Program-made: the position numbers and the translations under genes
DNA from: Dudresnaya verticillata
Lineage: Eukaryota
Length of the DNA stretch: 64,000 nucleotides
Direction of reading: 5' to 3'
Assembly: GCA_977862235.1 (NCBI GenBank)
Contig: OZ374559.1
Location: 2,046,001 to 2,110,000, forward strand
Notes under the pieces: generated by a model
Databases searched by the model: none
The model's input: the letters and a program-made list of their open reading frames with translations, nothing else
Told to the model about the DNA's origin: nothing
In this document: piece after piece, positions 5,865 to 64,000 of the stretch
How positions within the stretch are numbered: the stretch's first letter is position 1
Layout of the letters: each line of letters starts with the position of its first letter

Positions 5865-5868
5865 TGCA

Positions 5869-28402: not shown

Positions 28403-28579
28403 CACTGTAGCACGGATCCGGATGCGATCTTGATCCGGCATCCAGATTAGCTATCTGGTTCGCGTAAGCTGTAAGGTATGCGCCCATAAGGCTGCGGGTA
28501 TTAGCATTGCTGGCCCGATCCGGATGGGATCAGGACCGGACAAGTATCAGATTAGATCTAAGGCGCACGCTCTACAGTG
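28403..28579. mobile_element. Possible non-autonomous CACTG-ended (EnSpm/CACTA-like) miniature element
   Basis: Terminal inverted repeats CACTGTAG...CTACAGTG enclose several GATCCGG(AT)-like subterminal motifs. No target-site duplication is evident. Confidence 0.35.
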
Positions 28580-29621
28580 CGCGCGCACGTGCGGCTGTAA
28601 GACACACATGTCCACGTGTACGTGTAAGCACCCACACAGGGGTTAGTGCGGCGGTCTATCAGACGCGCGGCTGCACGCGACGCGTGATCTGTCAGACGCG
28701 CCTCGGAACGACACGTGTCCCGCGTTCCCGCGCTACACCCACGCCGCCGCGTCGCCGTACTATACTTAGGTAAGCCGTCCCAGACGTCACAGTAAACGCC
28801 CGGGCAAGCCGGCCTTGGTCCAGACTTCCCCGTTCCGCACGCGCGCATTCTACCGCTGCCTACGGCTAATCGTCTACCTCCCGTGCTTCCACGTCTACCA
28901 TCGTCCTTGACGTGTTCCATTTCTCTTTCCCTTTCCCTTCCTTTCCGCCTCGGGCGTTTACAGTCCGCCCAAGGCGTGCCCCTTTTGCTCTACCACCAAG
29001 TCGCCCACAGCGGGACTACCTACCGCCGAGGGCGCAGCTACCCACCGAGACCCGAACTGCTCGGCGGTCTATCGTCGCTGGACGTTTTGCACCACAGAAT
29101 TGGTTGTTATCTCCAACTGCTTCCATGAATTCAGAAAGAGTGTATGGTTAAATTGTTGTCGTTAATAGCTTTTTGTATGTACATAGCCCAGCGAGGACCC
29201 AGCGAGGAAAGGTAGGCTATGGTTGACGCATGGTTAGGTGCGAGCCGCGGAGCGTATTGAACGCGATAGGGGGCGGGATGAGGGAAGGGACGGGGGGCAG
29301 AGAGCCAGCAGGGTGGAGGGAACGGGGAGGGCGCGGGGGAAGCGAGGGGGCGGAGGAGCGGGGGGCGGGGGAGCGGGGGGGGGGGCGGGGGGCGGTACCA
29401 CAGGCGGGTGGACTGATGATGCCCACAGGGAGGCTGGGCTTGCGCCAAATGAACTGTGTTGATACGTTCAAATAGGTACCGGAATCACAAGATGAGGAAG
29501 TAGCCAATAGCGACACGTACGAAATGCTCATAGATAGACGGCGTTGGGGTCGTCACTCGCTTAACATTTGAGAAGGGTGTACAATTGTACCTATACAACG
29601 ACGCTACCATTGCCCTTATCC

Positions 29622-29759
29622 ACAACGGGCTACATCTCTGCGAGAGTACTCGCGAGACGGCGACGCGTATATTGTAGATGGCGGTGCTACGCTTCCTTCT
29701 CGAACGAAACCGCATCGAACGTCTGCACCAGACGCACCGCCGTCGTATTGCGTCGCGCA
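29622..29759 (+). repeat. Single-copy-region instance of the repeat at 4165-4299
   Basis: Direct sequence match to the array-1 unit. Confidence 0.92.
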
Positions 29760-30077
29760 TCCGCGCATCTCGACCGCCGCGAGCTCCACTCCTTCGCTGC
29801 TGCCCACCATCACACGGTCTCAACTTGTGTCTTGGTGTCCGCCTATAAGCCGTCGGCCGTCACTCCTCCGGCCCCTCCCCCGATCTCCGCGTCTAAAAAG
29901 CAGCAACGCCCACCCACCTTCCACTCCTACATGACCCGACAGTCCTTGCCGCCCTCCCCGCCCGCGTTCGCCCCGCCGCTTCCTCTCACCGCTACCCGCC
30001 CCGCCACTACCGCCGCCTCTTGCCCTCCCAGCCCGTCGCAGCACCGCACGCCGCCGCCGCCAAAGCCACGCGCCACC

Positions 30078-31426
30078 ATGGGGCTAGACCGTACCACGCT
30101 CACCCCGTCCACTCCGGTCGATCCGGCCGCGCTGCGCGAGAAGGCGGGCCAGTCGGCGTCGGCGTCGCTGGCGTCGCAGGTCGACGAGGTCACCAGCATA
30201 ACCTTCCAGCAGGCCATTAACTGCTGCGGCCTCACGTCCGTCGCGTACGCCCTCACCGCGCTGGGCTGCCCCACCACGGTTGACGAGCTGTTCCTCTCCG
30301 TGGGCGTCGGCGTCGAGAGCGCCGTCGGCGACGGAATGACCCTGGCGGAGATCTACGACGCCTCCACGCGCTTCATTGCCAACGAGAGCCTCCCGCTCTT
30401 TGCCGAGTGCTACCACTTTGACGCCTTCTCCACCTCGGTGGACGACTTTCGTGACGCCTGCAAGGACGAGGCCTCCGCCGGGCTCGACGATCTTCTCATC
30501 CTCAACTTTCACTCTGGCATCGCGCACGGCTGGGAGACCGGTGGCGGCGGCCACTTCTCGCTGCTGACCGCCTGGTCGCCCGACAATGACCACATCGTCA
30601 TGGCCGACGTCCACGCCATCAAGTACGGCGCGTACTGGTCGACGCCGACGTCGCAGATGCATGCTGAATGGCCGACAAGGACTCGTGCGGGCGCTCGCGC
30701 GGAGCCATCCGGTACGGGCGCCTCGACAAGGCGCTCGAGCGGCCGCTGGGCCATCTGACTCCGTCGCTGATCGACTGGACCGCGCCACCGGCGCCGTATA
30801 CGCGCGACAGCCTGGAGAGGTATATCCCCGGGGTGTGGGACACGGTGCTGGGCGTGCGCAACATGGAGGGGGTGTCCGCGCTGACGGCCGCGCTGCGGCT
30901 GCTGGAGGGGGACGACTCGGCTGTCTCGCGGCTGGACCAGATCATGCGGGCGCTGCAGGAGAGCTACACGTACCACCTGGACAACTTTGCAACGGGGCGG
31001 AAGCTGGCGGACATGGCGACGCGGCTCGGCGAGAAGGGGCTGACCAAGGCGAGGACGAGCGTCAAGAAGCTGAAGACGTTCTCCGGGGCGGCGCTGCGCT
31101 CAGCGCTGGAGGAGGTGGGGTGCGGCGAGAAGGGCGTGGCGGTGATGGCGGCGTACGATATCAACGCGGCGGTCGGGGCCGAGCTGCTGCCGCCCGAGAA
31201 GGGCGAGGCGGGGGCGCTGACGCATGGGACCAAGAGCTGGTCGCTGCTGGCGGGGCTGGACTCGCAGGCCGAGGTGGACGACGCGAACGGGCTGACTGTG
31301 GCGGCCGCGCACAACGTGATTCTGACCGGGCGGCTGTGGGCGACGTCGCTGGACCGCATGGCGCTCGGGATGAAGAAGCTTGGCGGCGGGCAGTGCTGCC
31401 TGATCGTGCTTGACCGCAGGGGGTGA
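30078..31426 (+). CDS. Phytochelatin synthase-like (papain-fold) protein, about 449 aa, interrupted by an apparent 1-nt deletion near 30666 (sequencing error or pseudogene)
   Basis: ATG in gccaccATGg context. Motifs FQQAINCCGLTS (catalytic Cys), LILNF, GGGHFSLL (His) and MADVHAIKYGAYW (Asp) are present. The conserved MxxxDxxxxxRG motif (MADKDSCGRSRG) continues in another frame from 30668 to the stop at 31426. Confidence 0.85.
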
Positions 31427-31999
31427 TTCTGATGATGGCGCAGGAAGCGGGGGGCGTGGGCGGCGTTGAGAGCCGTCCGACGGCAATGCGTGCGGTACGT
31501 ACGTCGGTATGGTACAGACTCGGTATGGTACAGACGAAGAGTGGGTAGCCGCGAGATACGGTGTCGTCGCAAGCTTCGACGTCGATCGCGCCCGTCGCGG
31601 CGCGCGCGTTGGCGGTGGTGAGCACGTTCTGCAGAGCACGTGTCGAGTGGCGGAAGCAAGAGCAGTGGGAGCTTGAAGCGGCCAGTATGTAGCATGAACT
31701 GTTAAACCGCTGGGAGCATTCGGTTGTGTCGGAAGGCGGAGCACCGAGCGGCGCGGCGGCGCGCGCAGCAGCAAGCGGTGGCTTTGCGGCGCAAAGCGTC
31801 ATTGGGGCGGGCGGCGGGCGGTGTGTGTGTTTGACCGCGCGCCCGGCGGCGGCGCTTCTCCGACGGCGCTCGGGACATGCACCGCGCTTTGAGCGCCCAA
31901 ATCTTTGCGTTTTCCTTTCCGCCGGCAGATTGCACGTGCGCCGCGCATCAGCATCCGCCCGCCGCCGCCATCTTCCGCGCCGCGCGCTGCACGCGCCCG

Positions 32000-32081
32000 A
32001 TGCCGCCGCCGCGCGCAACGCTCGACTCGCTGCGGAGCACGCGCACGCGCGTGGCGAAGCCGTCGCCGCGCGCGCGCGCCT

Positions 32082-32130
<49 letters not shown>

Positions 32131-32851
32131 GCGCGCGCAAGCGCAACATGCATCCGCGTCGCGCGACTGGCTGACGGACGCGGGCGCGCGGCACCCGCTG
32201 CGCGTGCTGTTCGTCGGGCACAACCCGTCGACGGCCAGCTGGGCGCGCGCGGCGCCGTACGCGCACGGCACCAACCTGTTCTACCGGCTGCTGCGCGAGA
32301 GCGGGCTGGCGCCGCGCGCGGTGGCGGTCGCGCGGCGCTTCCGCGAGCTGGCGCCGCGGCTCGGCTTTGCGTTCGCAGACCTGTTCGTGGTGGCGGGCAG
32401 CGACGCGTCCACGGTCGAGCGCGACGCGGCGCGGCGAGACGCGTGGCGCGACGCGTTCGTCGCGCGCGTGGTGCGCGCGACGCGCGGGCGGCCGCCCGTG
32501 GTGCTCGCGTGCGTGTCCAAGGTGGTTGCGCGCAAGCTGCTGCGCACGGGGCGCGGCGGCGCGTTTGGCTGCGTGGGGTGCGCGCGCGACTACGGGCTCG
32601 ACGGGCTGGGCGGCGTCGAGGTGTGGGTGCTGCCGTCGTCCAGCGGCCGCGCCGGCATGGCGTGGCGGGAGCGCGTCGAGCCTTACGAGCGGCTGCGGGA
32701 CCGCGTGGCGAGGATGCCGCCGTGGGAGGTTGCGGGCGGGGACGCGGGCGGGGACGCGGACGGGGACGCGGACGCGGACGCAGGCGGGGACGCGGACGAC
32801 GCGGACGCAGAAGACGCGGACGCAGAAGACGCGGACGCAGAAGACCGCTAA
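32000..32851 (+). CDS. Uracil-DNA glycosylase superfamily, family 2 (MUG/TDG-like) protein
   Basis: LRVLFVGHNPS...PYAHGTNLFYRLL and VWVLPSSSGRAG match the two MUG/TDG motifs. There is an N-terminal poly-Ala (GCC run) and a C-terminal acidic DADAE repeat. An alternative upstream ATG lies at 31877. Confidence 0.85.
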
Positions 32852-32994
32852 CGGGTCGCGCAGAGCGACCGACTTGTCGACGGCGCCAATTACACTCCGA
32901 CCGCCGTCACCCGTCACGATCGCGGCGCGGCACACACCGCGGCGCGCGCCGCGCGGCACGTCCCGCGGGCTGCGAGCAACGCGCGCGCCAACGT

Positions 32995-33036
<42 letters not shown>
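32995..33036. repeat. (CCG)n microsatellite upstream of the Cys-rich gene; similar runs near 32083-32130 and 35791-35819
   Basis: Directly visible. Confidence 0.9.
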
Positions 33037-33037
<1 letters not shown>

Positions 33038-33103
33038 GCATAAAACCCCGCGGCGGCCGCGCCCGCCTCGCCGCCCGCCCCGCCGCCGCCCGCCCCCGAC
33101 AAA

Positions 33104-33529
33104 ATGCCCGCCGCGCGCCGCTCCCCCATCGCGCGCGCGCTCGCGCTGCTCCTGCCCGCGCTGCTGGCCGCGGCGCTGCTGTCCGCCGCGTCGGCCGCGC
33201 CGCGCGCGTCGCCGACGCTGAACAAGCCGCTGTGCGCGTCGTGCTTCCGCGGGTGGCAGTGCGCGTCGCGCGTGTGCGCGGGGCGCAAGTGCGTGGCGGC
33301 GCGGTCCGCGCCGGGCGTGCGCGCGTGCAACGCAAAGCTGTGCGCCGCGTGCGCGTCGGCGCGCACGTGCCGCTCCAACCGGTGCTGGCGCGGGCGGTGC
33401 GTGCGCCGCGGCCGCGTGTCCGGCCCGCCGTCGCGGCGCCGCTGCTTCCCCGAGCTCTTCCGCACGCCCGAGCCCGACCACTCGCCCGAGCCCGACCACT
33501 CGCCCGAGCCGCGCGGAGCCGCCGCGTAG
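33104..33529 (+). CDS. Secreted cationic cysteine-rich protein D (141 aa) with two six-Cys repeats
   Basis: Signal peptide (ALALLLPALLAAALLSAASA), then two repeats of C-x2-C-x5-C-x4-C-x4-C-x11/14-C and an acidic PEPDHS x2 tail. A CATAAAA TATA-like motif lies at 33039-33045. Confidence 0.85.
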   Translation: MPAARRSPIARALALLLPALLAAALLSAASAAPRASPTLNKPLCASCFRGWQCASRVCAGRKCVAARSAPGVRACNAKLCAACASARTCRSNRCWRGRCVRRGRVSGPPSRRRCFPELFRTPEPDHSPEPDHSPEPRGAAA

Positions 33530-33781
33530 CACCGCCGCCGTCGCGCGCGTCAAGAGCTGCTCTGTACACGCTTCTCGCTTGCGAGTTGCTTTGCAACGCG
33601 TCTATCTACACGACTCTATCCACAGCTAATAAACCTATTCACTGCACACCGAAACCCGACTTGCTCGCGCCCCACTCACTCGTCCCGTCCCGTCCCGTCC
33701 CGTCCAACCTCACCTCCGCCTCGCCTCGCTCCCAAACACCTTTCACTCACTTGTGCAGCATGTGGCATACCTCTCCCGCCC

Positions 33782-35768
33782 TCATTTCGCGCCCTCCTTC
33801 CACCCCATCCACGGTCCGATCGCGTACCCCATCCGCTCAAGCGCCACCCGCACTGTTTTGACCGCCTCGGCGACGTCCACCCACACATCGACGTGCTTCA
33901 CCCCCGGGCACGGAGCAAACATGTGCGGCGTTCGATTCCCGCACTTCTCCTGGTAGAATTCTCGCGTCTTGTCTAACCATCCCCGCCATTGCAGATCGCA
34001 AAACCAAGCAACCACGCATCAGTCACCGTTACGTCAGTATGCCCCCGCGCATGTCTCTACTCTCTCTCACCGCGTCAACCATCTACTTGTTTGCAACAAC
34101 TTACTTGGGTGTAGCAGGCTCTGCTGCTCGTAGTACCAGATCTTGCACGTCTCCGCCAGGATGTTAAAGTTGTAGTCCGTGTACCCCACCGGCATAACCT
34201 CGATCAAAGAGCTAGTAGCAACAAACACACCAAAACCATCGTTCGTCAGTAAACACAAAAGCAATGCACCTCGAACAATCGCCAAGAGCGCTCGCAACTC
34301 TGCGTCATGCAACCTACCTGTGTCGCGGCATCCATATCTGCCCCATGCTCTGACCTCCGTGCGAGGTGAACAGCACCCCGGCGCGGGCAAACACCCGCAC
34401 CTGCTGCTCGGCCGTTTGCATGTCCGCCGTGGATCGCATCTCCACCTCGACACCATGCTGCTCGAACGCTGCGCGAAACGCCTGCTCCACCTCCTTGACG
34501 TTCCCAATCCGCCGGGTGCGGTGTCTCTGCAGCACCACGATCCGCTTTGGTGGCTGCGGGAACAGCACGCGCCCGAGGCGCACCTTGCGTGGCTCTACAA
34601 TCCCAAACACTCGATGCGCGCGCTGCCGCATCGACCGGCACACGCGCTCCTCCGCCAGGTTGCCGATCTTCGCACCGGATGTGAGCCGCGGCGCGCACAC
34701 CAGCTCCGTGCCCTTGTCGCTTATGAGGTCCCTGTGAAACAGCAGATGCGTGCCATCGCCGAGATGCGGGTATGCATGCCTCAGTGGGGCCGTCCTTCTC
34801 GGCTGGGCCGATTCCACGCGCAACTGCTCCTTTGTGTGCTGCGGGTACAGATAGGCCGGGTCGAGGCGCAGCACAAGCGCGTACAAGAAGCGGTTGATGT
34901 CCACAGAGGTCTGCGACTCAAAGTCGGCGCTGGTCTGCGGCAGGTACACATGGCGCAGGTGATCGGCGAACAACGCGCCCTCCGGCGCCGAACTGTGCAG
35001 CGAGAGCGATTCGTGCCACAGAGAAACATCTAGCAGCCACGCGATGTCCTTGAGCAAGTGGTTGTTGTGCGTGTTGCGCACATAGTCCAGATCGACCAGC
35101 GACAAGCTATCGACCCATCGCATCCGCGCCTTTGGCAGGTACACATCAAAGCTGCTCCCGACCTCGCGCACGGCAGCGTCGGTGTCCGGTCTACCGGCGA
35201 GCAGCGAGTGGCCGGTGCGGTAGACAGCGTCGAGGCACGAGCGCTGCGGCGCAAAGGTGTTGTTGAGAATGGGCCAGTGCCGCGACGAAAAGTAGCGCGG
35301 GTCGGCCGACTGGTCGCGCATGGAGCACCACTTGTCCGACGCGACGCGCGAGCCGTCCGCGCGCGTGTCGTCAACAAAGTAGACCAGCGGGCGCGTGGCC
35401 GCAGCGGTGGTGTTGACGCACACCAGCCCCGCGTACACGCAGCTCTGCGCGCCGGCGTCGTACTCGCGGCAGCCCAGCCGCGCGGTGCGGGCCGCGGCGG
35501 CGGGCGCGGCGGCGCGCAGCGCGCGGAGGTGCTCGAACGGGGTGCGCGCGGCCGCGGCGGTCGCGGCGGAAGCGGCGGAAGCGGCGGAAGCCGGCGACGG
35601 CGGCGCGCGCACCGGCGCGCGCGGCGGCCGCGGCGGCGGCGCGGGCAGCGACAGCTGCGGCAGGCGCGTGGTCCACAGCAGGTGCAGGCCGAGCAGCACC
35701 GAGAACGAGAGCACGACGAGCAGCAGCGGGCGCGACGCGGCGGTACGCAGCTTGGGCGGGTCGGGCAT
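33782..35768 (-). CDS. Type II membrane glycosyltransferase, GT61-like, 582 aa, 3 exons (35768-34318, 34211-34105, 33972-33782)
   Basis: N-terminal TM anchor and Pro/Ala stem. Motifs include HNNHLLKD, IVVLQRHRTRRIGN, EQQVRVFARAGVLFTSHGGQSMGQIWMP and SLIEVMP. Introns 34317-34212 (GTAGGT...TAG) and 34104-33973 (GTAAGT...TAG) each have a TACTGAC branch motif. Splicing them gives one open frame of 1749 nt. Confidence 0.85.
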
Positions 35769-36269
35769 GGCGCGGGCGGGCGGGCGGGCGGGCGGCGGCG
35801 GCGGCGGCGGCGGCGGCGGTCTCAGTCCGCGCGCGGGCGCGCGCGCGAGAGAGAGAGAGAGAGAGATGGCTCCGCGCGGACGCGCGCGGCAGCGCGTGCG
35901 AACGTGTCCGCGGCGGAGGCGCAGTTGAAAGGCGGCGCGTGGGCGAAAGCCATTGGCGGCGCTCCGGTTGCGCGCGGGCGGTTTCGCAACGTCCAAACTG
36001 ATTTAGCCGCCGCACGCAGCGCAGATGGCGACGACCTTTACGGTGCGCTGCGAAGGGCGCTACGTCGCCCCGTCTACTCAACCACCTACATACCTTCGGA
36101 AGGAACCGGAAGGGCTCGACCACGGCCATTGATCGCCAGCGCTTGAAAGCGGGCAAACCTTGCGGTGAGATATAATGCCAATCGTGAGTGCTTGCGTTTG
36201 CCCGAATGACGAGCCCCAGTCAATACCGACACCATAACAGCCATGTTGCGTCCGTCAGGGGACGCTGGA

Positions 36270-36530: not shown

Positions 36531-39500
36531 ATCATCCCAATCTAGTGACGACCTGCTCTGTCGACCCTGAAGTTTGGATATCGATGATCCAGCTACGACT
36601 TGGACTTCCCATCTTCAGTGGAGATGACCCATGCCCCCGTTGTGTTGATGGTACATGCTGAAGACCGTACATATTAAAACCACAGTCATGACCGTCCTAG
36701 TATAGATCTTTAATTGAATGACCCTGCGGTGACACCATCTCGTAAGCATTGAAAGTCTCTGTGGTCAGCCCGCACAGTCCTTCTACCATTTCAAGTATGC
36801 GCCGCTCTCAACATCACGCTATTCATCACTGCGAGCAATCGAAAATCCTCCATTATCGTCGATTGTGTTCAAACAACCGGACCTCCTACCGATGGCGACG
36901 TACATTTATGTGCAAGCATCCCTTTATTCTCAAAGTGGAGAGTAAGCCCCTTAAAGGGAATTAATATGCACTGTTGCTAACAGTATGCGTGAGGGGTGAC
37001 GACCGAGACATCAAATGCTTGGAGGGTGGGGGGCGAAGCTACTGTCATCTATGAAAATGTCCATAGAAGCTGATCACGGCGAAGCTCAGGTGAGTCGTTG
37101 GTGCATTTATGTGAGCCATTAGTTGTGTGAGCCATTGGCTCCAGAATCGCTCGTGGCGTTCAGGCTCAGCGGTTCAGCGAGCTCCGATTTTCTTGGAAAC
37201 TCTAAAGATACTTGGTCGACGACTGAGAAGCTCTCTCGTCTCTCGCTGAACTCCCACACGTCTGCCGTGCTTCAATTCACCGCAGTGGCTTTTAGTCACC
37301 GCAAGTTTGCGGGCAAACCCTCTAACCGTCGCTTCTCATGTTCGAAAACACGACTCCACACGTATAATTAACACTTTGTGCGTGACAATTGAGTTGCAAA
37401 GTTGCTCGACCACGATTACAAACCATTTCGTACTTCTTCCTTTCTTCCGGCAACGTTGACCTTCCGTGCTTCTTCGAGCGAGTTCTCCTTAATACTACAT
37501 TACGCACCAGCTCACAGATTAGTTTACCACGACTTTTTCGAAACGAGAGTAGTATCACTCTGTGACTCCTCAAGAAGCACTGCTACCAAGCAAGCATCCC
37601 TTTAATCGCAACATTCAGAGAACCAATGTCGGCTTCTGAGCGCCACTCGTTCAACTATATTCCAATGACTCCACATTCATTCAGACTCATTCTTTCCTGC
37701 GGCGGATGCACAACGACCACACATCTTAGATAGTCTGATCGGTGTTGACAGCAGCTGTCTTACCGCGCCGCTACTTCGCTGCCCTCGTTGCCTTCCCACA
37801 ACCAACAACGTCTTCCGTCACATGCCTTTCGCAATATGCTCAGCTTACTCACTTATTGAACAATTGTACAATCCACTGGCGTTGACGCCTCCGAATAGGC
37901 AACGTTTCAGTGCGTTTAACAGTAGTTTGCGTTTAACAACTTGACCCGTTGGGATGAAGACAACCACTACTGCAGAAGTCGAGAGACCGGGAGCCCCAAC
38001 AAAACTTTCTACTTCCAACGATGTTTACATGTTGCCGCCTCGCCCCACTTAACAATGAGATTGAACCTTAACTTTTCCTGCACTGTCTCCCATGCTCACA
38101 AGAGTCGCTGCGGAGATGGAATTGTTTTACAATGCCATGGAAGGGTAGTTGCTTCTTTCGGTGTCCAGCTTTGTTGTATTGTCTTCGTATGGTGTCAGCC
38201 CTCCTCCTGCTCTTGTGCCACAACAGTTCTTTTGCTGCCACTCATTTGAGTTTGGGTACAAATTTGCGTGGTCGGAATGGCATCTTTCTCAACTCTCAGA
38301 AGAGCTCTCTGCCCTATGCTCCGTATTGCGCAGATCGCATCTGCGGCAAAAGGGCGGGTTCAGGAATTACCACACCACCACTCGACTATACGTGGCCGCG
38401 TTGCAGAAATCAAGTTCCGCACCATAGGCTCAGGTCCACCGGACAATATGGATGGTGGTTATGATCATAGCGGTAGGCAGGTGAACGCCAAGCGGTAGAA
38501 TAATGAGGGGTCCCGTGACCGCCCTTACTTGACCAAATGCAGTCTAAAGCTCAGTAGTAACCGTCACCCCCCTCTACGCAGCTGAGTATCGGGGAAGCAA
38601 CCCAGCAGATGCAACTCTTGCGCTGGCTATGACTGGCAGCACGGTTTATTTCAGACTTGCCTCGCTATCATTCGTTAGCAATTAATCGTCGTCCAGTTGC
38701 AATCTCTGTTGTCCCTCTAGACTCTGGAGCGTCCTAGCGCCGCTATCTCTCTTCTGAATAATCTTCCCCCTTCTCTCTTTCTCTCAGAACAGTGAACTCG
38801 AGATCGTTACAAAACTCGAACAGACTCTGGCAGACTTCGTAGATACGTACCTGCCGTGTATCTAAAACGTTTGTTTATGCCGCAGCTTCGCTTGCTCCAT
38901 GCCCACCTCTTAACCTCACATCCGCCATATGCTGCGAAGCAGTAGCAATATAGCCCCTTCCAGAAGCTATTCTTCATCATATGTCATGGTCTTCCTTTTT
39001 ATCCCACTTCTTCGTAGGATCCTTCATCCCTTTTCTCTCTGAACACTCTCACCAGATATCAAAGCCCGTTACAGCCAAGTTGTACATATTTGAATGTTTT
39101 CTTACTATGGTCCTAAGCGGACGAACTGGGCATATCTTCTTCTGCACCCACACTCCGGTTACAGTTGTCGCAAGTTGTGTAGAAGAGTTTTGAAACCTCT
39201 GGGAGCCCTGTCCAGGATACTCGCACAGAGCTGCCCCCGTCACGCATAGTGCAGCACAGCCGAAAAAACTTTATCGAACTGTAGCGTGTGGCTGTGAAAG
39301 ACCCGATGTCCTATTTTGAGACGCGTTTTGCTGCATTCGCGCCCTCTCATGCATTTCTGTGGCTGTGCAGAAGCGTAGAGCGAGAGAGGAGTAACGCTGG
39401 AATAGTCCACACGAGGGAAGTGTAGTGAATACTGCGATCCTTCCTTCGTTTAATCGCTGAGCGTTGCACCTCAAGACTTTCAAAATGGAACAAAGGCCCG

Positions 39501-40549
39501 TGGTCTGCACGTGTCAATGGATAGGCTATAGTAGCGTATCCCTCCATATTGGGATAGCCGTGGTACTTTATCGCGAGGTATTGGAGCGAGCACGGGTCCG
39601 CGTTCAAACGAAGCCTCAATACAAAGACGTTGAATGAAAGTCAAGTCGGGCCCTCCCATTGCAAAGTGCTTTCCGGGTTCATTCCACAGTTGCAGCTGTG
39701 AGACCAACAAATGGCAACGCAAGTAAGCGCGTTGCAATGAGCCACAAGTTGATTGGGAAGATTGAGACTCCGTGAGATTCTCGAGGTTTTCCATTACGGG
39801 ATTCACAGCTGTGAGACAGCAGTACATAATACAAACTCCTGTTGTTACATTCTTTGAGCTAGAATCGTTTCCTATTCCGTGACTCTAGTGCTGCGTGTGA
39901 TACACTGCAGTATGGTTTCTTAAACAGCGAGTCGCGGCAATGCCCGCGCTCATGAGTAAACGTTTCTCATGACAATGCTCACGAGTTTTCGCGTTGCCAG
40001 ACACGAGTCTTGGATGTTTTGCATGCTGCAATGCATGGAGTCCTACACCCTTTGCATGTTGCCTCTCGAGGGCATGCGCACACTCTGTGGCCACACTTCT
40101 CTCTCATGCTCTCTGTAGATGGTCGAAAATCCCAAACCGCATAAACACGAAACGAATCGTCTGGCCACGCGCAATGGTAAGTGGTACATCTTACGGTAAG
40201 AAGATGTGATGTGCGGTCGGAAATGGAACGATTTAGGTAGTACCTTGGGATACTTTCCCCTGCCACCCAGTCGAAGCACTGCCGAAAGGGCAGCTCTGCG
40301 CGCAGAGTGTACGGTAGAAGCCAGAGGATATGGATGGCAACCACACAAGAAGCTCAGAAGGTTGGTTCTGAAGAACCTGTGTAATAATTGATGGTGATGG
40401 TGATCCAAGCGTTCAAAAAAGAAACAATGCTCTGGGTTTTGTCATACAAGCTGTTTGCACGCTTCCAAAATGCTCTATTCTCTTGGTGATACGTTGAAAG
40501 TCCCCTGCTGCATCTTCTTGCCTTGTTGAGAACTTTTAGCCAAAGGGTT

Positions 40550-40559
40550 GGTATTTAAA
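40550..40559 (+). promoter_or_regulatory. Candidate TATA-like element (GTATTTAAA) about 110 bp upstream of gene C; AATAAA at 41209-41214 downstream
   Basis: Motif and position only. Confidence 0.35.
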
Positions 40560-40661
40560 CGCCGTACTCACAACAGATTTAAGAAACGAAACGATGGCAC
40601 AATCCAACCCAAGAGCAGACCTGAAACAACGGATCACAACCTCGACCAGCAACACTTCATC

Positions 40662-41006
40662 ATGATCGGGAGGGCCATTTCTCTCTTCGTGCTTCTTCTT
40701 CTGGTGAACTTCGCTGCCGCCAATATATGCACAGTTTCACGACTTCGTGGACTCTGCGTCCCAATTGCAACCTGCCGATCGCAAAGACGCGTGCCACGTT
40801 TTAGTAGGAGTTGTGCAAGGGGATTGGGATGCTGTATAGGGTATCGTTTGAGAAAATGTACGGTGATAGTTCGCCGATCAACAGGCGCAAGGCTTGCAGT
40901 AGGTGTTTGCTTACCAAGCTTTGCCTGCAAAAGAGGATTTCAAACTTTACCGACCAGGAGCTGCGGTGGAAGCAGCCTCATCAAGTGTTGTTTCAATCCT
41001 CGCTAG
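40662..41006 (+). CDS. Secreted cationic double-domain defensin-like peptide C (114 aa), copy 1
   Basis: ATG at 40662 opens the signal peptide MIGRAISLFVLLLLVNFAAA. The 94-aa mature region has two six-Cys units: C-x8-C-x5-C-x12-C-x5-CC and C-x16-C-x5-C-x11-C-x7-CC, each with GxC at the second Cys. It contains 16 Arg, 3 Lys and no Asp/Glu. Confidence 0.88.
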   Translation: MIGRAISLFVLLLLVNFAAANICTVSRLRGLCVPIATCRSQRRVPRFSRSCARGLGCCIGYRLRKCTVIVRRSTGARLAVGVCLPSFACKRGFQTLPTRSCGGSSLIKCCFNPR

Positions 41007-44000
41007 TAGAGACCAAGAACATAGTTGCAAAGCCCACAAGGATCAGTTCAGTGTTTTCGTGAAGAAAGCGCTCGACATTGGTCTGTCATCATGAGCACAA
41101 ACATACGGCTACAGCAGCAGAAGAATGTATTTTGTTTGCTGCAGTTTAGCAACAGCCGCTACATTTATGGGAACAAGTGTTGCTGGTCGCTTAGAACTCT
41201 TGTTCTTTAATAAAGGTCTCTCTCTCTCTCTTAGAACGAATGGATTAAATGTGGAATTGTCTGTATGTACATCTCGCGCCACAATATGTCAGTGTAGTCA
41301 GTGCAGCATTTCTCGCCACGATATCCTTCGCAATCAGCTTGTGACCTTTCTCCGCAGCATTGCTCTCCACCGTGGTATTAGTACTCAGCAGAAGCGCAAC
41401 TTGTCCTACTTCGAGGAGGCCTTGGATCCCCACATCGTTGCCCACGTAAGATCACCTTAAAGAAAAAGTAAACGTTTACCATCACGTCGTGGCCGTTGTC
41501 CTTTTGTGGATTCCTCTGCACTCAACGCGTCTGAACGGTGCCGCGATGCCTGTCAGTTGCAGCATGCTGAAGACCGTACATATTAAAACCACAGTCATGA
41601 CCGTCCTAGTATAGATCTTTAATTGAATGACCCTGCGGTGACACCATCTCGTAAGCATTGAAAGTCTCTGTGGTCAGCCCGCACAGTCCTTCTACCATTT
41701 CAAGTATGCGCCGCTCTCAACATCACGCTATTCATCACTGCGAGCAATCGAAAATCCTCCATTATCGTCGATTGTGTTCAAACAACCGGACCTCCTACCG
41801 ATGGCGACGTACATTTATGTGCAAGCATCCCTTTATTCTCAAAGTGGAGAGTAAGCCCCTTAAAGGGAATTAATATGCACTGTTGCTAACAGTATGCGTG
41901 AGGGGTGACGACCGAGACATCAAATGCTTGGAGGGTGGGGGGCGAAGCTACTGTCATCTATGAAAATGTCCATAGAAGCTGATCACGGCGAAGCTCAGGT
42001 GAGTCGTTGGTGCATTTATGTGAGCCATTAGTTGTGTGAGCCATTGGCTCCAGAATCGCTCGTGGCGTTCAGGCTCAGCGGTTCAGCGAGCTCCGATTTT
42101 CTTGGAAACTCTAAAGATACTTGGTCGACGACTGAGAAGCTCTCTCGTCTCTCGCTGAACTCCCACACGTCTGCCGTGCTTCAATTCACCGCAGTGGCTT
42201 TTAGTCACCGCAAGTTTGCGGGCAAACCCTCTAACCGTCGCTTCTCATGTTCGAAAACACGACTCCACACGTATAATTAACACTTTGTGCGTGACAATTG
42301 AGTTGCAAAGTTGCTCGACCACGATTACAAACCATTTCGTACTTCTTCCTTTCTTCCGGCAACGTTGACCTTCCGTGCTTCTTCGAGCGAGTTCTCCTTA
42401 ATACTACATTACGCACCAGCTCACAGATTAGTTTACCACGACTTTTTCGAAACGAGAGTAGTATCACTCTGTGACTCCTCAAGAAGCACTGCTACCAAGC
42501 AAGCATCCCTTTAATCGCAACATTCAGAGAACCAATGTCGGCTTCTGAGCGCCACTCGTTCAACTATATTCCAATGACTCCACATTCATTCAGACTCATT
42601 CTTTCCTGCGGCGGATGCACAACGACCACACATCTTAGATAGTCTGATCGGTGTTGACAGCAGCTGTCTTACCGCGCCGCTACTTCGCTGCCCTCGTTGC
42701 CTTCCCACAACCAACAACGTCTTCCGTCACATGCCTTTCGCAATATGCTCAGCTTACTCACTTATTGAACAATTGTACAATCCACTGGCGTTGACGCCTC
42801 CGAATAGGCAACGTTTCAGTGCGTTTAACAGTAGTTTGCGTTTAACAACTTGACCCGTTGGGATGAAGACAACCACTACTGCAGAAGTCGAGAGACCGGG
42901 AGCCCCAACAAAACTTTCTACTTCCAACGATGTTTACATGTTGCCGCCTCGCCCCACTTAACAATGAGATTGAACCTTAACTTTTCCTGCACTGTCTCCC
43001 ATGCTCACAAGAGTCGCTGCGGAGATGGAATTGTTTTACAATGCCATGGAAGGGTAGTTGCTTCTTTCGGTGTCCAGCTTTGTTGTATTGTCTTCGTATG
43101 GTGTCAGCCCTCCTCCTGCTCTTGTGCCACAACAGTTCTTTTGCTGCCACTCATTTGAGTTTGGGTACAAATTTGCGTGGTCGGAATGGCATCTTTCTCA
43201 ACTCTCAGAAGAGCTCTCTGCCCTATGCTCCGTATTGCGCAGATCGCATCTGCGGCAAAAGGGCGGGTTCAGGAATTACCACACCACCACTCGACTATAC
43301 GTGGCCGCGTTGCAGAAATCAAGTTCCGCACCATAGGCTCAGGTCCACCGGACAATATGGATGGTGGTTATGATCATAGCGGTAGGCAGGTGAACGCCAA
43401 GCGGTAGAATAATGAGGGGTCCCGTGACCGCCCTTACTTGACCAAATGCAGTCTAAAGCTCAGTAGTAACCGTCACCCCCCTCTACGCAGCTGAGTATCG
43501 GGGAAGCAACCCAGCAGATGCAACTCTTGCGCTGGCTATGACTGGCAGCACGGTTTATTTCAGACTTGCCTCGCTATCATTCGTTAGCAATTAATCGTCG
43601 TCCAGTTGCAATCTCTGTTGTCCCTCTAGACTCTGGAGCGTCCTAGCGCCGCTATCTCTCTTCTGAATAATCTTCCCCCTTCTCTCTTTCTCTCAGAACA
43701 GTGAACTCGAGATCGTTACAAAACTCGAACAGACTCTGGCAGACTTCGTAGATACGTACCTGCCGTGTATCTAAAACGTTTGTTTATGCCGCAGCTTCGC
43801 TTGCTCCATGCCCACCTCTTAACCTCACATCCGCCATATGCTGCGAAGCAGTAGCAATATAGCCCCTTCCAGAAGCTATTCTTCATCATATGTCATGGTC
43901 TTCCTTTTTATCCCACTTCTTCGTAGGATCCTTCATCCCTTTTCTCTCTGAACACTCTCACCAGATATCAAAGCCCGTTACAGCCAAGTTGTACATATTT

Positions 44001-45570
44001 GAATGTTTTCTTACTATGGTCCTAAGCGGACGAACTGGGCATATCTTCTTCTGCACCCACACTCCGGTTACAGTTGTCGCAAGTTGTGTAGAAGAGTTTT
44101 GAAACCTCTGGGAGCCCTGTCCAGGATACTCGCACAGAGCTGCCCCCGTCACGCATAGTGCAGCACAGCCGAAAAAACTTTATCGAACTGTAGCGTGTGG
44201 CTGTGAAAGACCCGATGTCCTATTTTGAGACGCGTTTTGCTGCATTCGCGCCCTCTCATGCATTTCTGTGGCTGTGCAGAAGCGTAGAGCGAGAGAGGAG
44301 TAACGCTGGAATAGTCCACACGAGGGAAGTGTAGTGAATACTGCGATCCTTCCTTCGTTTAATCGCTGAGCGTTGCACCTCAAGACTTTCAAAATGGAAC
44401 AAAGGCCCGTGGTCTGCACGTGTCAATGGATAGGCTATAGTAGCGTATCCCTCCATATTGGGATAGCCGTGGTACTTTATCGCGAGGTATTGGAGCGAGC
44501 ACGGGTCCGCGTTCAAACGAAGCCTCAATACAAAGACGTTGAATGAAAGTCAAGTCGGGCCCTCCCATTGCAAAGTGCTTTCCGGGTTCATTCCACAGTT
44601 GCAGCTGTGAGACCAACAAATGGCAACGCAAGTAAGCGCGTTGCAATGAGCCACAAGTTGATTGGGAAGATTGAGACTCCGTGAGATTCTCGAGGTTTTC
44701 CATTACGGGATTCACAGCTGTGAGACAGCAGTACATAATACAAACTCCTGTTGTTACATTCTTTGAGCTAGAATCGTTTCCTATTCCGTGACTCTAGTGC
44801 TGCGTGTGATACACTGCAGTATGGTTTCTTAAACAGCGAGTCGCGGCAATGCCCGCGCTCATGAGTAAACGTTTCTCATGACAATGCTCACGAGTTTTCG
44901 CGTTGCCAGACACGAGTCTTGGATGTTTTGCATGCTGCAATGCATGGAGTCCTACACCCTTTGCATGTTGCCTCTCGAGGGCATGCGCACACTCTGTGGC
45001 CACACTTCTCTCTCATGCTCTCTGTAGATGGTCGAAAATCCCAAACCGCATAAACACGAAACGAATCGTCTGGCCACGCGCAATGGTAAGTGGTACATCT
45101 TACGGTAAGAAGATGTGATGTGCGGTCGGAAATGGAACGATTTAGGTAGTACCTTGGGATACTTTCCCCTGCCACCCAGTCGAAGCACTGCCGAAAGGGC
45201 AGCTCTGCGCGCAGAGTGTACGGTAGAAGCCAGAGGATATGGATGGCAACCACACAAGAAGCTCAGAAGGTTGGTTCTGAAGAACCTGTGTAATAATTGA
45301 TGGTGATGGTGATCCAAGCGTTCAAAAAAGAAACAATGCTCTGGGTTTTGTCATACAAGCTGTTTGCACGCTTCCAAAATGCTCTATTCTCTTGGTGATA
45401 CGTTGAAAGTCCCCTGCTGCATCTTCTTGCCTTGTTGAGAACTTTTAGCCAAAGGGTTGGTATTTAAACGCCGTACTCACAACAGATTTAAGAAACGAAA
45501 CGATGGCACAATCCAACCCAAGAGCAGACCTGAAACAACGGATCACAACCTCGACCAGCAACACTTCATC

Positions 45571-45915
45571 ATGATCGGGAGGGCCATTTCTCTCTTCGTG
45601 CTTCTTCTTCTGGTGAACTTCGCTGCCGCCAATATATGCACAGTTTCACGACTTCGTGGACTCTGCGTCCCAATTGCAACCTGCCGATCGCAAAGACGCG
45701 TGCCACGTTTTAGTAGGAGTTGTGCAAGGGGATTGGGATGCTGTATAGGGTATCGTTTGAGAAAATGTACGGTGATAGTTCGCCGATCAACAGGCGCAAG
45801 GCTTGCAGTAGGTGTTTGCTTACCAAGCTTTGCCTGCAAAAGAGGATTTCAAACTTTACCGACCAGGAGCTGCGGTGGAAGCAGCCTCATCAAGTGTTGT
45901 TTCAATCCTCGCTAG
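45571..45915 (+). CDS. Double-domain defensin-like peptide C, copy 2
   Basis: Identical translation. Confidence 0.88.
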   Translation: MIGRAISLFVLLLLVNFAAANICTVSRLRGLCVPIATCRSQRRVPRFSRSCARGLGCCIGYRLRKCTVIVRRSTGARLAVGVCLPSFACKRGFQTLPTRSCGGSSLIKCCFNPR

Positions 45916-48900
45916 TAGAGACCAAGAACATAGTTGCAAAGCCCACAAGGATCAGTTCAGTGTTTTCGTGAAGAAAGCGCTCGACATTGGTCTGTCATCA
46001 TGAGCACAAACATACGGCTACAGCAGCAGAAGAATGTATTTTGTTTGCTGCAGTTTAGCAACAGCCGCTACATTTATGGGAACAAGTGTTGCTGGTCGCT
46101 TAGAACTCTTGTTCTTTAATAAAGGTCTCTCTCTCTCTCTTAGAACGAATGGATTAAATGTGGAATTGTCTGTATGTACATCTCGCGCCACAATATGTCA
46201 GTGTAGTCAGTGCAGCATTTCTCGCCACGATATCCTTCGCAATCAGCTTGTGACCTTTCTCCGCAGCATTGCTCTCCACCGTGGTATTAGTACTCAGCAG
46301 AAGCGCAACTTGTCCTACTTCGAGGAGGCCTTGGATCCCCACATCGTTGCCCACGTAAGATCACCTTAAAGAAAAAGTAAACGTTTACCATCACGTCGTG
46401 GCCGTTGTCCTTTTGTGGATTCCTCTGCACTCAACGCGTCTGAACGGTGCCGCGATGCCTGTCAGTTGCAGCATGCTGAAGACCGTACATATTAAAACCA
46501 CAGTCATGACCGTCCTAGTATAGATCTTTAATTGAATGACCCTGCGGTGACACCATCTCGTAAGCATTGAAAGTCTCTGTGGTCAGCCCGCACAGTCCTT
46601 CTACCATTTCAAGTATGCGCCGCTCTCAACATCACGCTATTCATCACTGCGAGCAATCGAAAATCCTCCATTATCGTCGATTGTGTTCAAACAACCGGAC
46701 CTCCTACCGATGGCGACGTACATTTATGTGCAAGCATCCCTTTATTCTCAAAGTGGAGAGTAAGCCCCTTAAAGGGAATTAATATGCACTGTTGCTAACA
46801 GTATGCGTGAGGGGTGACGACCGAGACATCAAATGCTTGGAGGGTGGGGGGCGAAGCTACTGTCATCTATGAAAATGTCCATAGAAGCTGATCACGGCGA
46901 AGCTCAGGTGAGTCGTTGGTGCATTTATGTGAGCCATTAGTTGTGTGAGCCATTGGCTCCAGAATCGCTCGTGGCGTTCAGGCTCAGCGGTTCAGCGAGC
47001 TCCGATTTTCTTGGAAACTCTAAAGATACTTGGTCGACGACTGAGAAGCTCTCTCGTCTCTCGCTGAACTCCCACACGTCTGCCGTGCTTCAATTCACCG
47101 CAGTGGCTTTTAGTCACCGCAAGTTTGCGGGCAAACCCTCTAACCGTCGCTTCTCATGTTCGAAAACACGACTCCACACGTATAATTAACACTTTGTGCG
47201 TGACAATTGAGTTGCAAAGTTGCTCGACCACGATTACAAACCATTTCGTACTTCTTCCTTTCTTCCGGCAACGTTGACCTTCCGTGCTTCTTCGAGCGAG
47301 TTCTCCTTAATACTACATTACGCACCAGCTCACAGATTAGTTTACCACGACTTTTTCGAAACGAGAGTAGTATCACTCTGTGACTCCTCAAGAAGCACTG
47401 CTACCAAGCAAGCATCCCTTTAATCGCAACATTCAGAGAACCAATGTCGGCTTCTGAGCGCCACTCGTTCAACTATATTCCAATGACTCCACATTCATTC
47501 AGACTCATTCTTTCCTGCGGCGGATGCACAACGACCACACATCTTAGATAGTCTGATCGGTGTTGACAGCAGCTGTCTTACCGCGCCGCTACTTCGCTGC
47601 CCTCGTTGCCTTCCCACAACCAACAACGTCTTCCGTCACATGCCTTTCGCAATATGCTCAGCTTACTCACTTATTGAACAATTGTACAATCCACTGGCGT
47701 TGACGCCTCCGAATAGGCAACGTTTCAGTGCGTTTAACAGTAGTTTGCGTTTAACAACTTGACCCGTTGGGATGAAGACAACCACTACTGCAGAAGTCGA
47801 GAGACCGGGAGCCCCAACAAAACTTTCTACTTCCAACGATGTTTACATGTTGCCGCCTCGCCCCACTTAACAATGAGATTGAACCTTAACTTTTCCTGCA
47901 CTGTCTCCCATGCTCACAAGAGTCGCTGCGGAGATGGAATTGTTTTACAATGCCATGGAAGGGTAGTTGCTTCTTTCGGTGTCCAGCTTTGTTGTATTGT
48001 CTTCGTATGGTGTCAGCCCTCCTCCTGCTCTTGTGCCACAACAGTTCTTTTGCTGCCACTCATTTGAGTTTGGGTACAAATTTGCGTGGTCGGAATGGCA
48101 TCTTTCTCAACTCTCAGAAGAGCTCTCTGCCCTATGCTCCGTATTGCGCAGATCGCATCTGCGGCAAAAGGGCGGGTTCAGGAATTACCACACCACCACT
48201 CGACTATACGTGGCCGCGTTGCAGAAATCAAGTTCCGCACCATAGGCTCAGGTCCACCGGACAATATGGATGGTGGTTATGATCATAGCGGTAGGCAGGT
48301 GAACGCCAAGCGGTAGAATAATGAGGGGTCCCGTGACCGCCCTTACTTGACCAAATGCAGTCTAAAGCTCAGTAGTAACCGTCACCCCCCTCTACGCAGC
48401 TGAGTATCGGGGAAGCAACCCAGCAGATGCAACTCTTGCGCTGGCTATGACTGGCAGCACGGTTTATTTCAGACTTGCCTCGCTATCATTCGTTAGCAAT
48501 TAATCGTCGTCCAGTTGCAATCTCTGTTGTCCCTCTAGACTCTGGAGCGTCCTAGCGCCGCTATCTCTCTTCTGAATAATCTTCCCCCTTCTCTCTTTCT
48601 CTCAGAACAGTGAACTCGAGATCGTTACAAAACTCGAACAGACTCTGGCAGACTTCGTAGATACGTACCTGCCGTGTATCTAAAACGTTTGTTTATGCCG
48701 CAGCTTCGCTTGCTCCATGCCCACCTCTTAACCTCACATCCGCCATATGCTGCGAAGCAGTAGCAATATAGCCCCTTCCAGAAGCTATTCTTCATCATAT
48801 GTCATGGTCTTCCTTTTTATCCCACTTCTTCGTAGGATCCTTCATCCCTTTTCTCTCTGAACACTCTCACCAGATATCAAAGCCCGTTACAGCCAAGTTG

Positions 48901-50479
48901 TACATATTTGAATGTTTTCTTACTATGGTCCTAAGCGGACGAACTGGGCATATCTTCTTCTGCACCCACACTCCGGTTACAGTTGTCGCAAGTTGTGTAG
49001 AAGAGTTTTGAAACCTCTGGGAGCCCTGTCCAGGATACTCGCACAGAGCTGCCCCCGTCACGCATAGTGCAGCACAGCCGAAAAAACTTTATCGAACTGT
49101 AGCGTGTGGCTGTGAAAGACCCGATGTCCTATTTTGAGACGCGTTTTGCTGCATTCGCGCCCTCTCATGCATTTCTGTGGCTGTGCAGAAGCGTAGAGCG
49201 AGAGAGGAGTAACGCTGGAATAGTCCACACGAGGGAAGTGTAGTGAATACTGCGATCCTTCCTTCGTTTAATCGCTGAGCGTTGCACCTCAAGACTTTCA
49301 AAATGGAACAAAGGCCCGTGGTCTGCACGTGTCAATGGATAGGCTATAGTAGCGTATCCCTCCATATTGGGATAGCCGTGGTACTTTATCGCGAGGTATT
49401 GGAGCGAGCACGGGTCCGCGTTCAAACGAAGCCTCAATACAAAGACGTTGAATGAAAGTCAAGTCGGGCCCTCCCATTGCAAAGTGCTTTCCGGGTTCAT
49501 TCCACAGTTGCAGCTGTGAGACCAACAAATGGCAACGCAAGTAAGCGCGTTGCAATGAGCCACAAGTTGATTGGGAAGATTGAGACTCCGTGAGATTCTC
49601 GAGGTTTTCCATTACGGGATTCACAGCTGTGAGACAGCAGTACATAATACAAACTCCTGTTGTTACATTCTTTGAGCTAGAATCGTTTCCTATTCCGTGA
49701 CTCTAGTGCTGCGTGTGATACACTGCAGTATGGTTTCTTAAACAGCGAGTCGCGGCAATGCCCGCGCTCATGAGTAAACGTTTCTCATGACAATGCTCAC
49801 GAGTTTTCGCGTTGCCAGACACGAGTCTTGGATGTTTTGCATGCTGCAATGCATGGAGTCCTACACCCTTTGCATGTTGCCTCTCGAGGGCATGCGCACA
49901 CTCTGTGGCCACACTTCTCTCTCATGCTCTCTGTAGATGGTCGAAAATCCCAAACCGCATAAACACGAAACGAATCGTCTGGCCACGCGCAATGGTAAGT
50001 GGTACATCTTACGGTAAGAAGATGTGATGTGCGGTCGGAAATGGAACGATTTAGGTAGTACCTTGGGATACTTTCCCCTGCCACCCAGTCGAAGCACTGC
50101 CGAAAGGGCAGCTCTGCGCGCAGAGTGTACGGTAGAAGCCAGAGGATATGGATGGCAACCACACAAGAAGCTCAGAAGGTTGGTTCTGAAGAACCTGTGT
50201 AATAATTGATGGTGATGGTGATCCAAGCGTTCAAAAAAGAAACAATGCTCTGGGTTTTGTCATACAAGCTGTTTGCACGCTTCCAAAATGCTCTATTCTC
50301 TTGGTGATACGTTGAAAGTCCCCTGCTGCATCTTCTTGCCTTGTTGAGAACTTTTAGCCAAAGGGTTGGTATTTAAACGCCGTACTCACAACAGATTTAA
50401 GAAACGAAACGATGGCACAATCCAACCCAAGAGCAGACCTGAAACAACGGATCACAACCTCGACCAGCAACACTTCATC

Positions 50480-50824
50480 ATGATCGGGAGGGCCATTTCT
50501 CTCTTCGTGCTTCTTCTTCTGGTGAACTTCGCTGCCGCCAATATATGCACAGTTTCACGACTTCGTGGACTCTGCGTCCCAATTGCAACCTGCCGATCGC
50601 AAAGACGCGTGCCACGTTTTAGTAGGAGTTGTGCAAGGGGATTGGGATGCTGTATAGGGTATCGTTTGAGAAAATGTACGGTGATAGTTCGCCGATCAAC
50701 AGGCGCAAGGCTTGCAGTAGGTGTTTGCTTACCAAGCTTTGCCTGCAAAAGAGGATTTCAAACTTTACCGACCAGGAGCTGCGGTGGAAGCAGCCTCATC
50801 AAGTGTTGTTTCAATCCTCGCTAG
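50480..50824 (+). CDS. Double-domain defensin-like peptide C, copy 3
   Basis: Identical translation. Confidence 0.88.
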   Translation: MIGRAISLFVLLLLVNFAAANICTVSRLRGLCVPIATCRSQRRVPRFSRSCARGLGCCIGYRLRKCTVIVRRSTGARLAVGVCLPSFACKRGFQTLPTRSCGGSSLIKCCFNPR

Positions 50825-63600: not shown

Positions 63601-64000
63601 ATATCAAAGCCCGTTACAGCCAAGTTGTACATATTTGAATGTTTTCTTACTATGGTCCTAAGCGGACGAACTGGGCATATCTTCTTCTGCACCCACACTC
63701 CGGTTACAGTTGTCGCAAGTTGTGTAGAAGAGTTTTGAAACCTCTGGGAGCCCTGTCCAGGATACTCGCACAGAGCTGCCCCCGTCACGCATAGTGCAGC
63801 ACAGCCGAAAAAACTTTATCGAACTGTAGCGTGTGGCTGTGAAAGACCCGATGTCCTATTTTGAGACGCGTTTTGCTGCATTCGCGCCCTCTCATGCATT
63901 TCTGTGGCTGTGCAGAAGCGTAGAGCGAGAGAGGAGTAACGCTGGAATAGTCCACACGAGGGAAGTGTAGTGAATACTGCGATCCTTCCTTCGTTTAATC

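Follow-up and report, generated by a model that had tools for sequence, protein, structure and literature searches.

Under the current account defensins form two superfamilies, of which the trans type is confined to animals, having arisen and evolved exclusively there according to a 2020 review (PMC7203481). Trans-defensins are defined by a vicinal cysteine pair in the final strand, from which two disulfides leave on opposite faces (PMC7203481, PMC9138766). Avian AvBD11 is a double-domain form of 82 mature residues with its domains encoded on separate exons (PMC9138766), and helianthamide and sea-anemone toxin groups have been placed in the beta-defensin fold (PMC6835510). Here we describe P0001, a 114-residue protein encoded once in every unit of a 4,909-bp tandem array that lies, in probably red-algal DNA, within a 64,000-nucleotide stretch of contig OZ374559.1 (hereafter the window). 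Among described peptides its closest counterparts are double beta-defensins such as AvBD11, and our tentative reading, to which we give slightly less than an even chance, is that of a secreted, beta-defensin-like, cationic antimicrobial peptide whose gene has been amplified in tandem. In titles and abstracts we found no trans-defensin-type or beta-defensin-like peptide described from red algae, in keeping with an earlier annotation made from the letters of this DNA alone (the initial annotation), which knew of none from such a lineage; in one review (PMC2866484) the terms 'beta-defensin-like' and 'red alga' occur unconnected.

The 4,909-bp array and its gene

The array has a sharp left edge at 36654, as seen on inspection of the boundary, and runs head to tail past the end of the window. 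Both it and a second array described below were found by self-BLAST, Tandem Repeats Finder at periods of up to 500 having returned nothing in the window. A unit-by-unit comparison gave 0 differences among the five full units and a single one in the partial sixth (37920, C versus A). The initial annotation had claimed at least five identical gene copies in a 4.9-kb unit, and these were recovered: the 48-nt start of the open reading frame (ORF) recurs every 4,909 bp exactly, five times in all, and the five translations are identical. Copy-number-variable defensin clusters and gene-bearing macrosatellites are familiar from animals, and the locus resembles them in carrying a short host-defence-type gene in near-identical multi-kilobase units; it differs in the exact length of its units, in the lack of any difference over five of them and in its algal host. 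The features of the array and of its first gene copy are as follows.

36654..64000, no strand: tandem array with a period of 4,909 bp, five full units and a partial sixth, from self-BLAST
40662..41006, + strand: gene copy 1 (P0001), a single exon with stop included, encoding a 114-residue precursor with homologues P0022 and P0023
45571..45915, + strand: gene copy 2, identical
50480..50824, + strand: gene copy 3, identical
55389..55733, + strand: gene copy 4, identical
60298..60642, + strand: gene copy 5, identical
40552..40559, + strand: TATA-box-like motif TATTTAAA, 110 bp upstream of the ATG (motif match, putative function)
40594..40665, + strand: 23-codon upstream ORF, one per unit, ending in a TGA that shares bases with the main ATG (ATGA)
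40662..40721, + strand: predicted signal peptide, residues 1-20, from the sequence and its likeness to the hydrophobic N-termini of P0022 and P0023; AlphaFold2 models a helix at 3-19
40728..40835, + strand: domain 1, residues 23-58, C-x8-C-x5-C-x12-C-x5-CC, found by the leave-out hidden Markov model (HMM) described below at an independent E-value (i-E) of 0.0033 and modelled by AlphaFold2 at a predicted local distance difference test score (pLDDT) of 81-86
40857..40991, + strand: domain 2, residues 66-110, C-x16-C-x5-C-x11-C-x7-CC, leave-out HMM i-E 9.6e-7, carrying all 19 structural matches (residues ~60-114)
41209..41214, + strand: AATAAA, polyadenylation-signal-like, 203 bp after the stop (motif match, putative function)

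The frame of P0001 opens at its first in-frame ATG, with no other in-frame ATG upstream within the open frame, and ends with a TAG four residues past the last CC; no third domain, pseudo-exon or remnant was found downstream of this stop. Its N-terminus, MIGR followed by 13 hydrophobic residues and AAA, is signal-peptide-like by a rule of our own applied to the sequence. Cleavage after AAA would place the mature start at N21, and we consider it likely that P0001 is secreted. The predicted mature protein (N21-R114, 94 residues) has 16 Arg, 3 Lys and 12 Cys, no Asp, Glu or His and one Tyr, giving an isoelectric point (pI) of 11.2 and a charge of +19; the net charge of about +19 over 94 residues without acidic residues that had been claimed for it is thus what we find. 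The signal peptide and the two C...GxC-x5-C...C...CC domains of that description also hold, in that the N-terminus is signal-peptide-like and both domains fit the pattern, with a Gly two residues ahead of the second Cys in each.

About 93% of each unit is non-coding and without a second recognisable gene, and the local non-coding DNA around the ORF is ~48% GC. A Pfam scan of the unit gave no match in six other frames, in agreement with the initial view that this is its only convincing gene, and no replicase- or transposase-like frame in the six frames. No terminal inverted repeats were found in the unit, only one short direct repeat, and there was no match to it in the PLSDB plasmid collection or to Rfam anywhere in the window. 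The 23-codon upstream ORF follows the TATA-like motif and precedes the main start. It is relevant only if transcription begins upstream of it; the ATGA overlap could couple termination and reinitiation if this ORF falls within the 5' untranslated region.

Homologues and predicted fold

Length alone is no evidence for a gene in this unit. When the 4,909-bp unit was simulated 4,000 times with a second-order Markov model, 3,691 of the sequences contained an ATG ORF of at least 100 residues, and the actual unit contains eleven stop-to-stop frames of at least 90 codons, several of which are rich in Cys and Arg (10-11 Cys in 107-130 residues). A signal-peptide-like start was rarer (12/4,000), as was one match to the six-Cys pattern (7/4,000), and neither two such matches nor any combination of the features appeared in the 4,000 simulations; these criteria were picked after the ORF had been seen, and homologues were taken as the decisive test.

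A word-based homologue search with P0001 alone found none. When 1.84 billion cluster representatives were searched exhaustively with phmmer, exactly two matched, P0022 (163 residues, E 4.6e-6) and P0023 (222 residues, E 7.5e-5), both of which are unnamed singletons from Logan assemblies. Each has a hydrophobic, signal-peptide-like N-terminus followed by three domains of the P0001 type; P0023 likely starts at M48, the extension that precedes it being probably mis-called. The three proteins align collinearly, and the invariant positions comprise the full set of 12 Cys in P0001 together with G30, P34, P45, G60, R62, G81, G102, G103 and P113. Local alignment scores of P0001 against P0022 and P0023 were 151 and 130, compared with means of 37 and 41 for composition-preserving shuffles of P0001 (z 16.8 and 11.4; 0/3,000 shuffles reached the real scores), and background scores (25-35) were obtained for three further chance frames of the unit that are rich in Cys. 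When the window was translated into 2,101 six-frame peptides and searched with an HMM built from the six domains of P0022 and P0023, leaving P0001 out, the five ORF copies alone stood out (E 1.2e-9, the next best at E 2.7). The two homologues, the shuffle scores and the leave-out HMM identify the P0001 ORF as a family member, and on these comparisons it is very probably a real gene.

All eight domains have GxC at Cys2 and share the spacing C-x8-16-C-x5-C-x11-15-C-x5-7-CC, and each of the three proteins combines a signal peptide with two or three repeats and a CC-x-G-[YF]-R linker. By these sequence features P0001, P0022 and P0023 constitute a new family of defensin-like design. A profile search with the three-sequence alignment found no member beyond P0022 and P0023, and none of the pattern matches in JGI metagenomes (115), IMG/VR (73) or prokaryote genomes (30) was confirmed. 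The first loop of domain 2 in P0001 has 16 residues, whereas that of the seven remaining family domains has 8-9. The extra 7-8 residues are Arg-rich, lie within residues 66-83 (40857..40910) and are modelled as part of an extended hairpin with strands 65-72 and 75-85.

AlphaFold2 gave a pLDDT of 53 with the single P0001 sequence and a mean of 75 with the three-row alignment, in which the domains reach 75-86. In the model of each domain the strands that hold Cys1 and Cys2 pair as a hairpin, Cys3 falls in a short helix and Cys4 in a loop, and the CC pair lies in the last strand; DSSP places C57-C58 and C109-C110 in strands 55-59 and 107-111. The geometry that defines trans-defensins is thus found in P0001 on the predicted model only. 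The three-row model was compared by VIA-align with 48,161 representative PDB chains, of which 19 matched at Z>=2, all over P0001 residues ~60-114 and with a maximum Z of 4.8, in a range (Z<8) that, according to the tool, may reflect a common arrangement only. By title, 11 of the 19 are defensins, six are sea-anemone peptides, one is a clip domain and one is unrelated (Nop56/58), so that 17 are defensins or sea-anemone defensin-like peptides. The top match is helianthamide, over domain 2 (Z 4.8, root-mean-square deviation (rmsd) 1.8 Å, 40/44 residues, 22% identity), which was also the sole match in a second structural comparison of the model with the PDB. The defensins include the C-domain of oyster big defensin 1 (Z 3.4), HBD4 (3.1), HBD2 (2.5), gallin (2.5), AvBD11 (2.5; 6qeu) and crocodile CpoBD13 (2.4), together with AvBD2, a consensus beta-defensin and three alpha-defensins; the other sea-anemone peptides are neurotoxin I, ATX Ia, APETx1, Hact-SCRiP1 and Hact-4, and the clip domain is PAP2 clip-2 (2ike; Z 2.2, rmsd 3.1, 36 residues aligned). 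Such a list of 19 chains would hardly arise by chance, though every Z is below 5. A beta-defensin-like fold for P0001 is moderately favoured by this modelling.

Beta-defensins and the C-domain of big defensins resemble P0001 in their six Cys, terminal vicinal CC, GxC at Cys2, cationic character and signal peptide. Classical beta-defensins carry an N-terminal helix, whereas the P0001 model has the Cys1 strand hairpinned to the Cys2 strand and Cys3 in a short helix; the loops of P0001 are also longer (x12-15 in the family, x16 in domain 2), no Pfam family is matched, and beta-defensins are animal proteins while the host of P0001 is probably a red alga. The spacing of domain 1 (8,5,12,5) is near the monodomain avian pattern Cx4-7Cx3-4Cx9-10Cx5-6CC (PMC9138766). 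AvBD11 shares with P0001 a signal peptide, two divergent six-Cys domains, 12 Cys in all and a similar mature length (82 and 94 residues); it differs in its two-exon arrangement, P0001 having a single exon. There is no detectable sequence homology between the two, the relatives of P0001 have three domains, and both P0001 domains are strongly basic. Arthropod clip domains likewise have six Cys and a terminal CC, and domain 2 of P0001 ends in '[ST]-C-G-G-x5-CC', which resembles the clip consensus. However, no protease domain follows in P0001, Pfam CLIP is not matched and the clip Z of 2.2 is below those of the defensin-type matches; with that Z and no protease domain, a clip-domain reading is weaker than a defensin one.

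Possible function of P0001

We propose that each 4,909-bp unit contains one intact gene without introns, belonging to a probable red alga and encoding a 114-residue protein with predicted secretion and two predicted beta-defensin-like domains of the trans-defensin type. After export the protein would fold oxidatively into six disulfides, and its 19 Arg and Lys residues, with no acidic residue, may let it bind to, or attack electrostatically, the anionic envelopes or walls of microbes. Unequal crossing-over may recently have amplified the gene and raised its dose, although 'dosage-amplified', the term initially applied, is an interpretation of copy number and not a result. An antimicrobial role for P0001 is possible, and we would place it just short of evenly balanced.

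Several observations weigh against this interpretation. Every VIA-align Z is below 5, beneath the confidence range of the tool; the single-sequence model matched no chain at Z>=2; the fold call comes from one model made from a three-row alignment, and domain 1 is outside every structural match. Foldseek found nothing in the PDB at E<=0.001, the best defensin being AvBD11[1-40] (6qes) at rank 41 with E 6.5, and nothing among the BFVD viral structures (best E 0.74). Searched by hmmscan against Pfam-A, at E<=0.1 and at E<=10, P0001, P0022 and P0023 matched no family, and Defensin_beta (PF00711), Defensin_beta_2 (PF13841), big defensin, CLIP (PF12032) and Inhibitor_I68 (PF10468) were all unmatched; HMMER filters discard most weak matches, so that this null result leaves room for a very distant relation. 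PDB sequence and profile searches gave chance rows only (Rv2887, E 0.15; biotin synthase, E 6.7). Similarity between domains 1 and 2 is modest, being reached by 22 of 2,000 shuffles, and there is none at the DNA level. The animal-type fold that had been supposed finds support in the neighbours of the AlphaFold2 model, which are almost only of defensin type, and none in the size of the Z scores, in the single-sequence model or in any Pfam defensin or clip match. The relatives are far less basic than P0001 (net +5 and +12, their first or second domains being acidic), so that cationicity, as judged from these sequences, is not a family trait and the general function of the family may be something other than antimicrobial. 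Helianthamide itself is acidic and inhibits an enzyme, and magnificamide, a close homologue of it, has no antimicrobial activity (PMC6835510). The GC content at third codon positions (GC3) of the P0001 ORF is 0.44, against 0.86-0.99 in three GC-rich neighbouring genes, and with this contrast its codon usage does not look like that of a typical highly expressed host gene. Finally, the red-algal assignment comes from one gene.

Since the relatives are so much less basic, the high charge appears to be a derived feature of P0001, as would be expected if it had been recruited to an antimicrobial role. ESM Atlas, in which scores below 0.9 count as leads only, returned arthropod clusters without a family; the nearest clusters were from arthropods and chordates, all below 0.9, and the leads include a cluster with 17% Defensin_beta and 12% Inhibitor_I68 (0.86) and GLL11 (0.81).

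A serious rival, albeit in our estimate an improbable one, is that the same two-domain fold serves to deter grazers as a toxin or to bind and inhibit an enzyme tightly, be it an alpha-amylase, a carboxypeptidase or a protease. Helianthamide, the top structural match, is an inhibitor of alpha-amylase, and five more of the matches are sea-anemone channel toxins or related peptides; the ESM lead with 12% Inhibitor_I68 points in the same direction, and since P0022 and P0023 are not strongly cationic the ancestral role need not have been antimicrobial. Helianthamide and magnificamide, with their strands, short helix and three disulfides, are single-domain cnidarian peptides and acidic (pI 5.3-5.8, helianthamide at 5.3), whereas P0001 has two domains and a pI of 11.2 (PMC6835510 for the sea-anemone peptides). 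Nor does mature P0001, with 0 His and 1 Tyr, have the composition for helianthamide-type contacts. The enzyme-contact motif of helianthamide is rich in Tyr and His and cannot be present in such a protein, and an Arg-rich charge without acidic residues is more typical of peptides directed at membranes or cell walls. The tick carboxypeptidase inhibitor (MEROPS I68) is also a small secreted protein with two tandem defensin-like domains, and is represented in the ESM lead at 0.86; however, there is no Pfam I68 match and it is absent among the 19 VIA-align matches.

If P0001 is the peptide we propose, a red-algal family would extend the trans-defensin superfamily far outside the Metazoa or provide a clean case of fold convergence. 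One may go further and suppose that trans-defensin-type domains are not an animal invention, that red algae have a multi-domain family of them, either shared anciently or evolved independently, and that its hyper-cationic two-domain member is held as a gene-bearing macrosatellite delivering high doses for host defence, but we regard this larger picture as doubtful. The novelty lies in a sequence family of defensin-like design, in its probable occurrence in a new lineage and in its unusual genomic arrangement. Hardly any antimicrobial peptides encoded by red-algal genes are known, and as red seaweeds are farmed and prone to microbial disease, a native, highly cationic peptide would be a lead of practical value. 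The two arrays, the perfect one of 4.9-kb units and near it the 7-kb one with its secreted-protein genes, could also serve as a model for algal amplification of defence-type genes.

Amplification, host origin and neighbouring genes

The window consists of three parts: a first array with a 7,047-bp unit (1..27688), a GC-rich island at ~28.2-36 kb and the 4,909-bp array from 36654. The recognisable features outside the 4,909-bp array are as follows.

10179..10982, + strand, and 26228..27007, - strand: convergent paralogues of secreted-protein-like type, one copy of each per 7-kb unit, ~260 residues and 12 Cys
29931..30758, + strand: phytochelatin-synthase-like ORF
31877..32851: UDG-superfamily ORF
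34314..35768, - strand: GT61 glycosyltransferase

The P0001 gene could be real and yet have been amplified passively, by a macrosatellite or as an integrated multimer of a small element, its copies being perhaps silent or weak and without a dosage function. This is distinctly improbable in our view, although the largely non-coding unit with no other recognisable gene, a GC3 that equals the local non-coding composition and not the style of host genes, and an unrelated array with a 7,047-bp unit only 9 kb away all speak for it. Red algae are also known to carry small plasmids with transcribed ORFs (PMC4814812). However, all five ORFs are intact, the TATA-like and AATAAA motifs lie at plausible distances, and the unit has neither a replicase- or transposase-like frame, nor terminal inverted repeats, nor a match in the plasmid collection; an array with fixed unique boundaries and rare variants is moreover unlike a concatenated circle.

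A little more improbable still is that the low-GC arrays derive from an animal epibiont or another organism, by mis-assembly or by recent horizontal transfer, in which case an animal-type peptide would be unsurprising. This would account for the sharp break in composition (48% versus up to 75% GC) and the contrast in GC3, and it fits with trans-defensins having been reported only from animals (PMC7203481), with nearest ESM clusters that are arthropod and chordate, albeit leads only, and with P0022 and P0023 being unnamed Logan-assembly singletons. Against this, the island is flanked on both sides by arrays within one contiguous sequence, and each array is set off from the island by ~0.6 kb of unique sequence at ~50% GC, suggesting that low GC is the intergenic state of this genome and not the sign of a mis-join. 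The phmmer search of the 1.84 billion representatives gave no animal relative, and the P0001 gene has no intron. For the GT61 glycosyltransferase all 20 of 20 matches were at E<=4e-88 and 39-61% identity, and the only two species named among them, Gracilariopsis chorda and Agarophyton chilense, are both red algae. From this single gene the host is probably a red alga, one not closely related to the sequenced red algae, and not an animal, as the apparently algal genome of the initial annotation had anticipated.

The weakest alternative, a chance ORF in a satellite whose composition yields Cys- and Arg-rich translations, draws on the unremarkable length of the P0001 frame, the other Cys-rich frames of the unit and the lack of a coding-type GC3 signal, and is effectively refuted by two independent homologues with 12 conserved Cys (z 11-17), by a leave-out HMM that matches the P0001 frame alone and by simulations that never (0/4,000) unite its features.

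The preferred reading of P0001 as an amplified, secreted peptide has a parallel on the other side of the island. The paralogues of the 7-kb unit have signal-peptide-like N-termini, are 29% identical (E 5e-32) with a GC3 of 0.61-0.63, and match no Pfam family. Judged by their sequences, the arrays on both flanks of the island amplify genes for predicted secreted, Cys-containing proteins, and since the 7-kb array also encodes real, diverged paralogues of this kind, gene-bearing arrays would seem to be a feature of the locus.

The island itself (~28200..36000) is 60-80% GC, with genes at a GC3 of 0.86-0.99, a contrast to the ~48% GC arrays on either side that is striking within 64 kb. Its phytochelatin-synthase-like ORF overlaps a second long ORF on the + strand in a different frame (30668..31426), and 29931..31426 may be one gene with a frameshift or short intron, or else overlapping chance frames in GC-rich DNA. 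A 141-residue ORF at 33104..33529 (+ strand; GC3 0.99), which has no Pfam match, combines a signal-peptide-like start with many C-x2-3-C spacings and a short repeated (PEPDHS) tail. The first array comprises 3.9 near-perfect copies of its 7,047-bp period and has a sharp right edge at 27688; its copies vary at four sites, namely two substitutions near unit position 1508-1525, a 2-bp indel near 5899 and a substitution at 6542.

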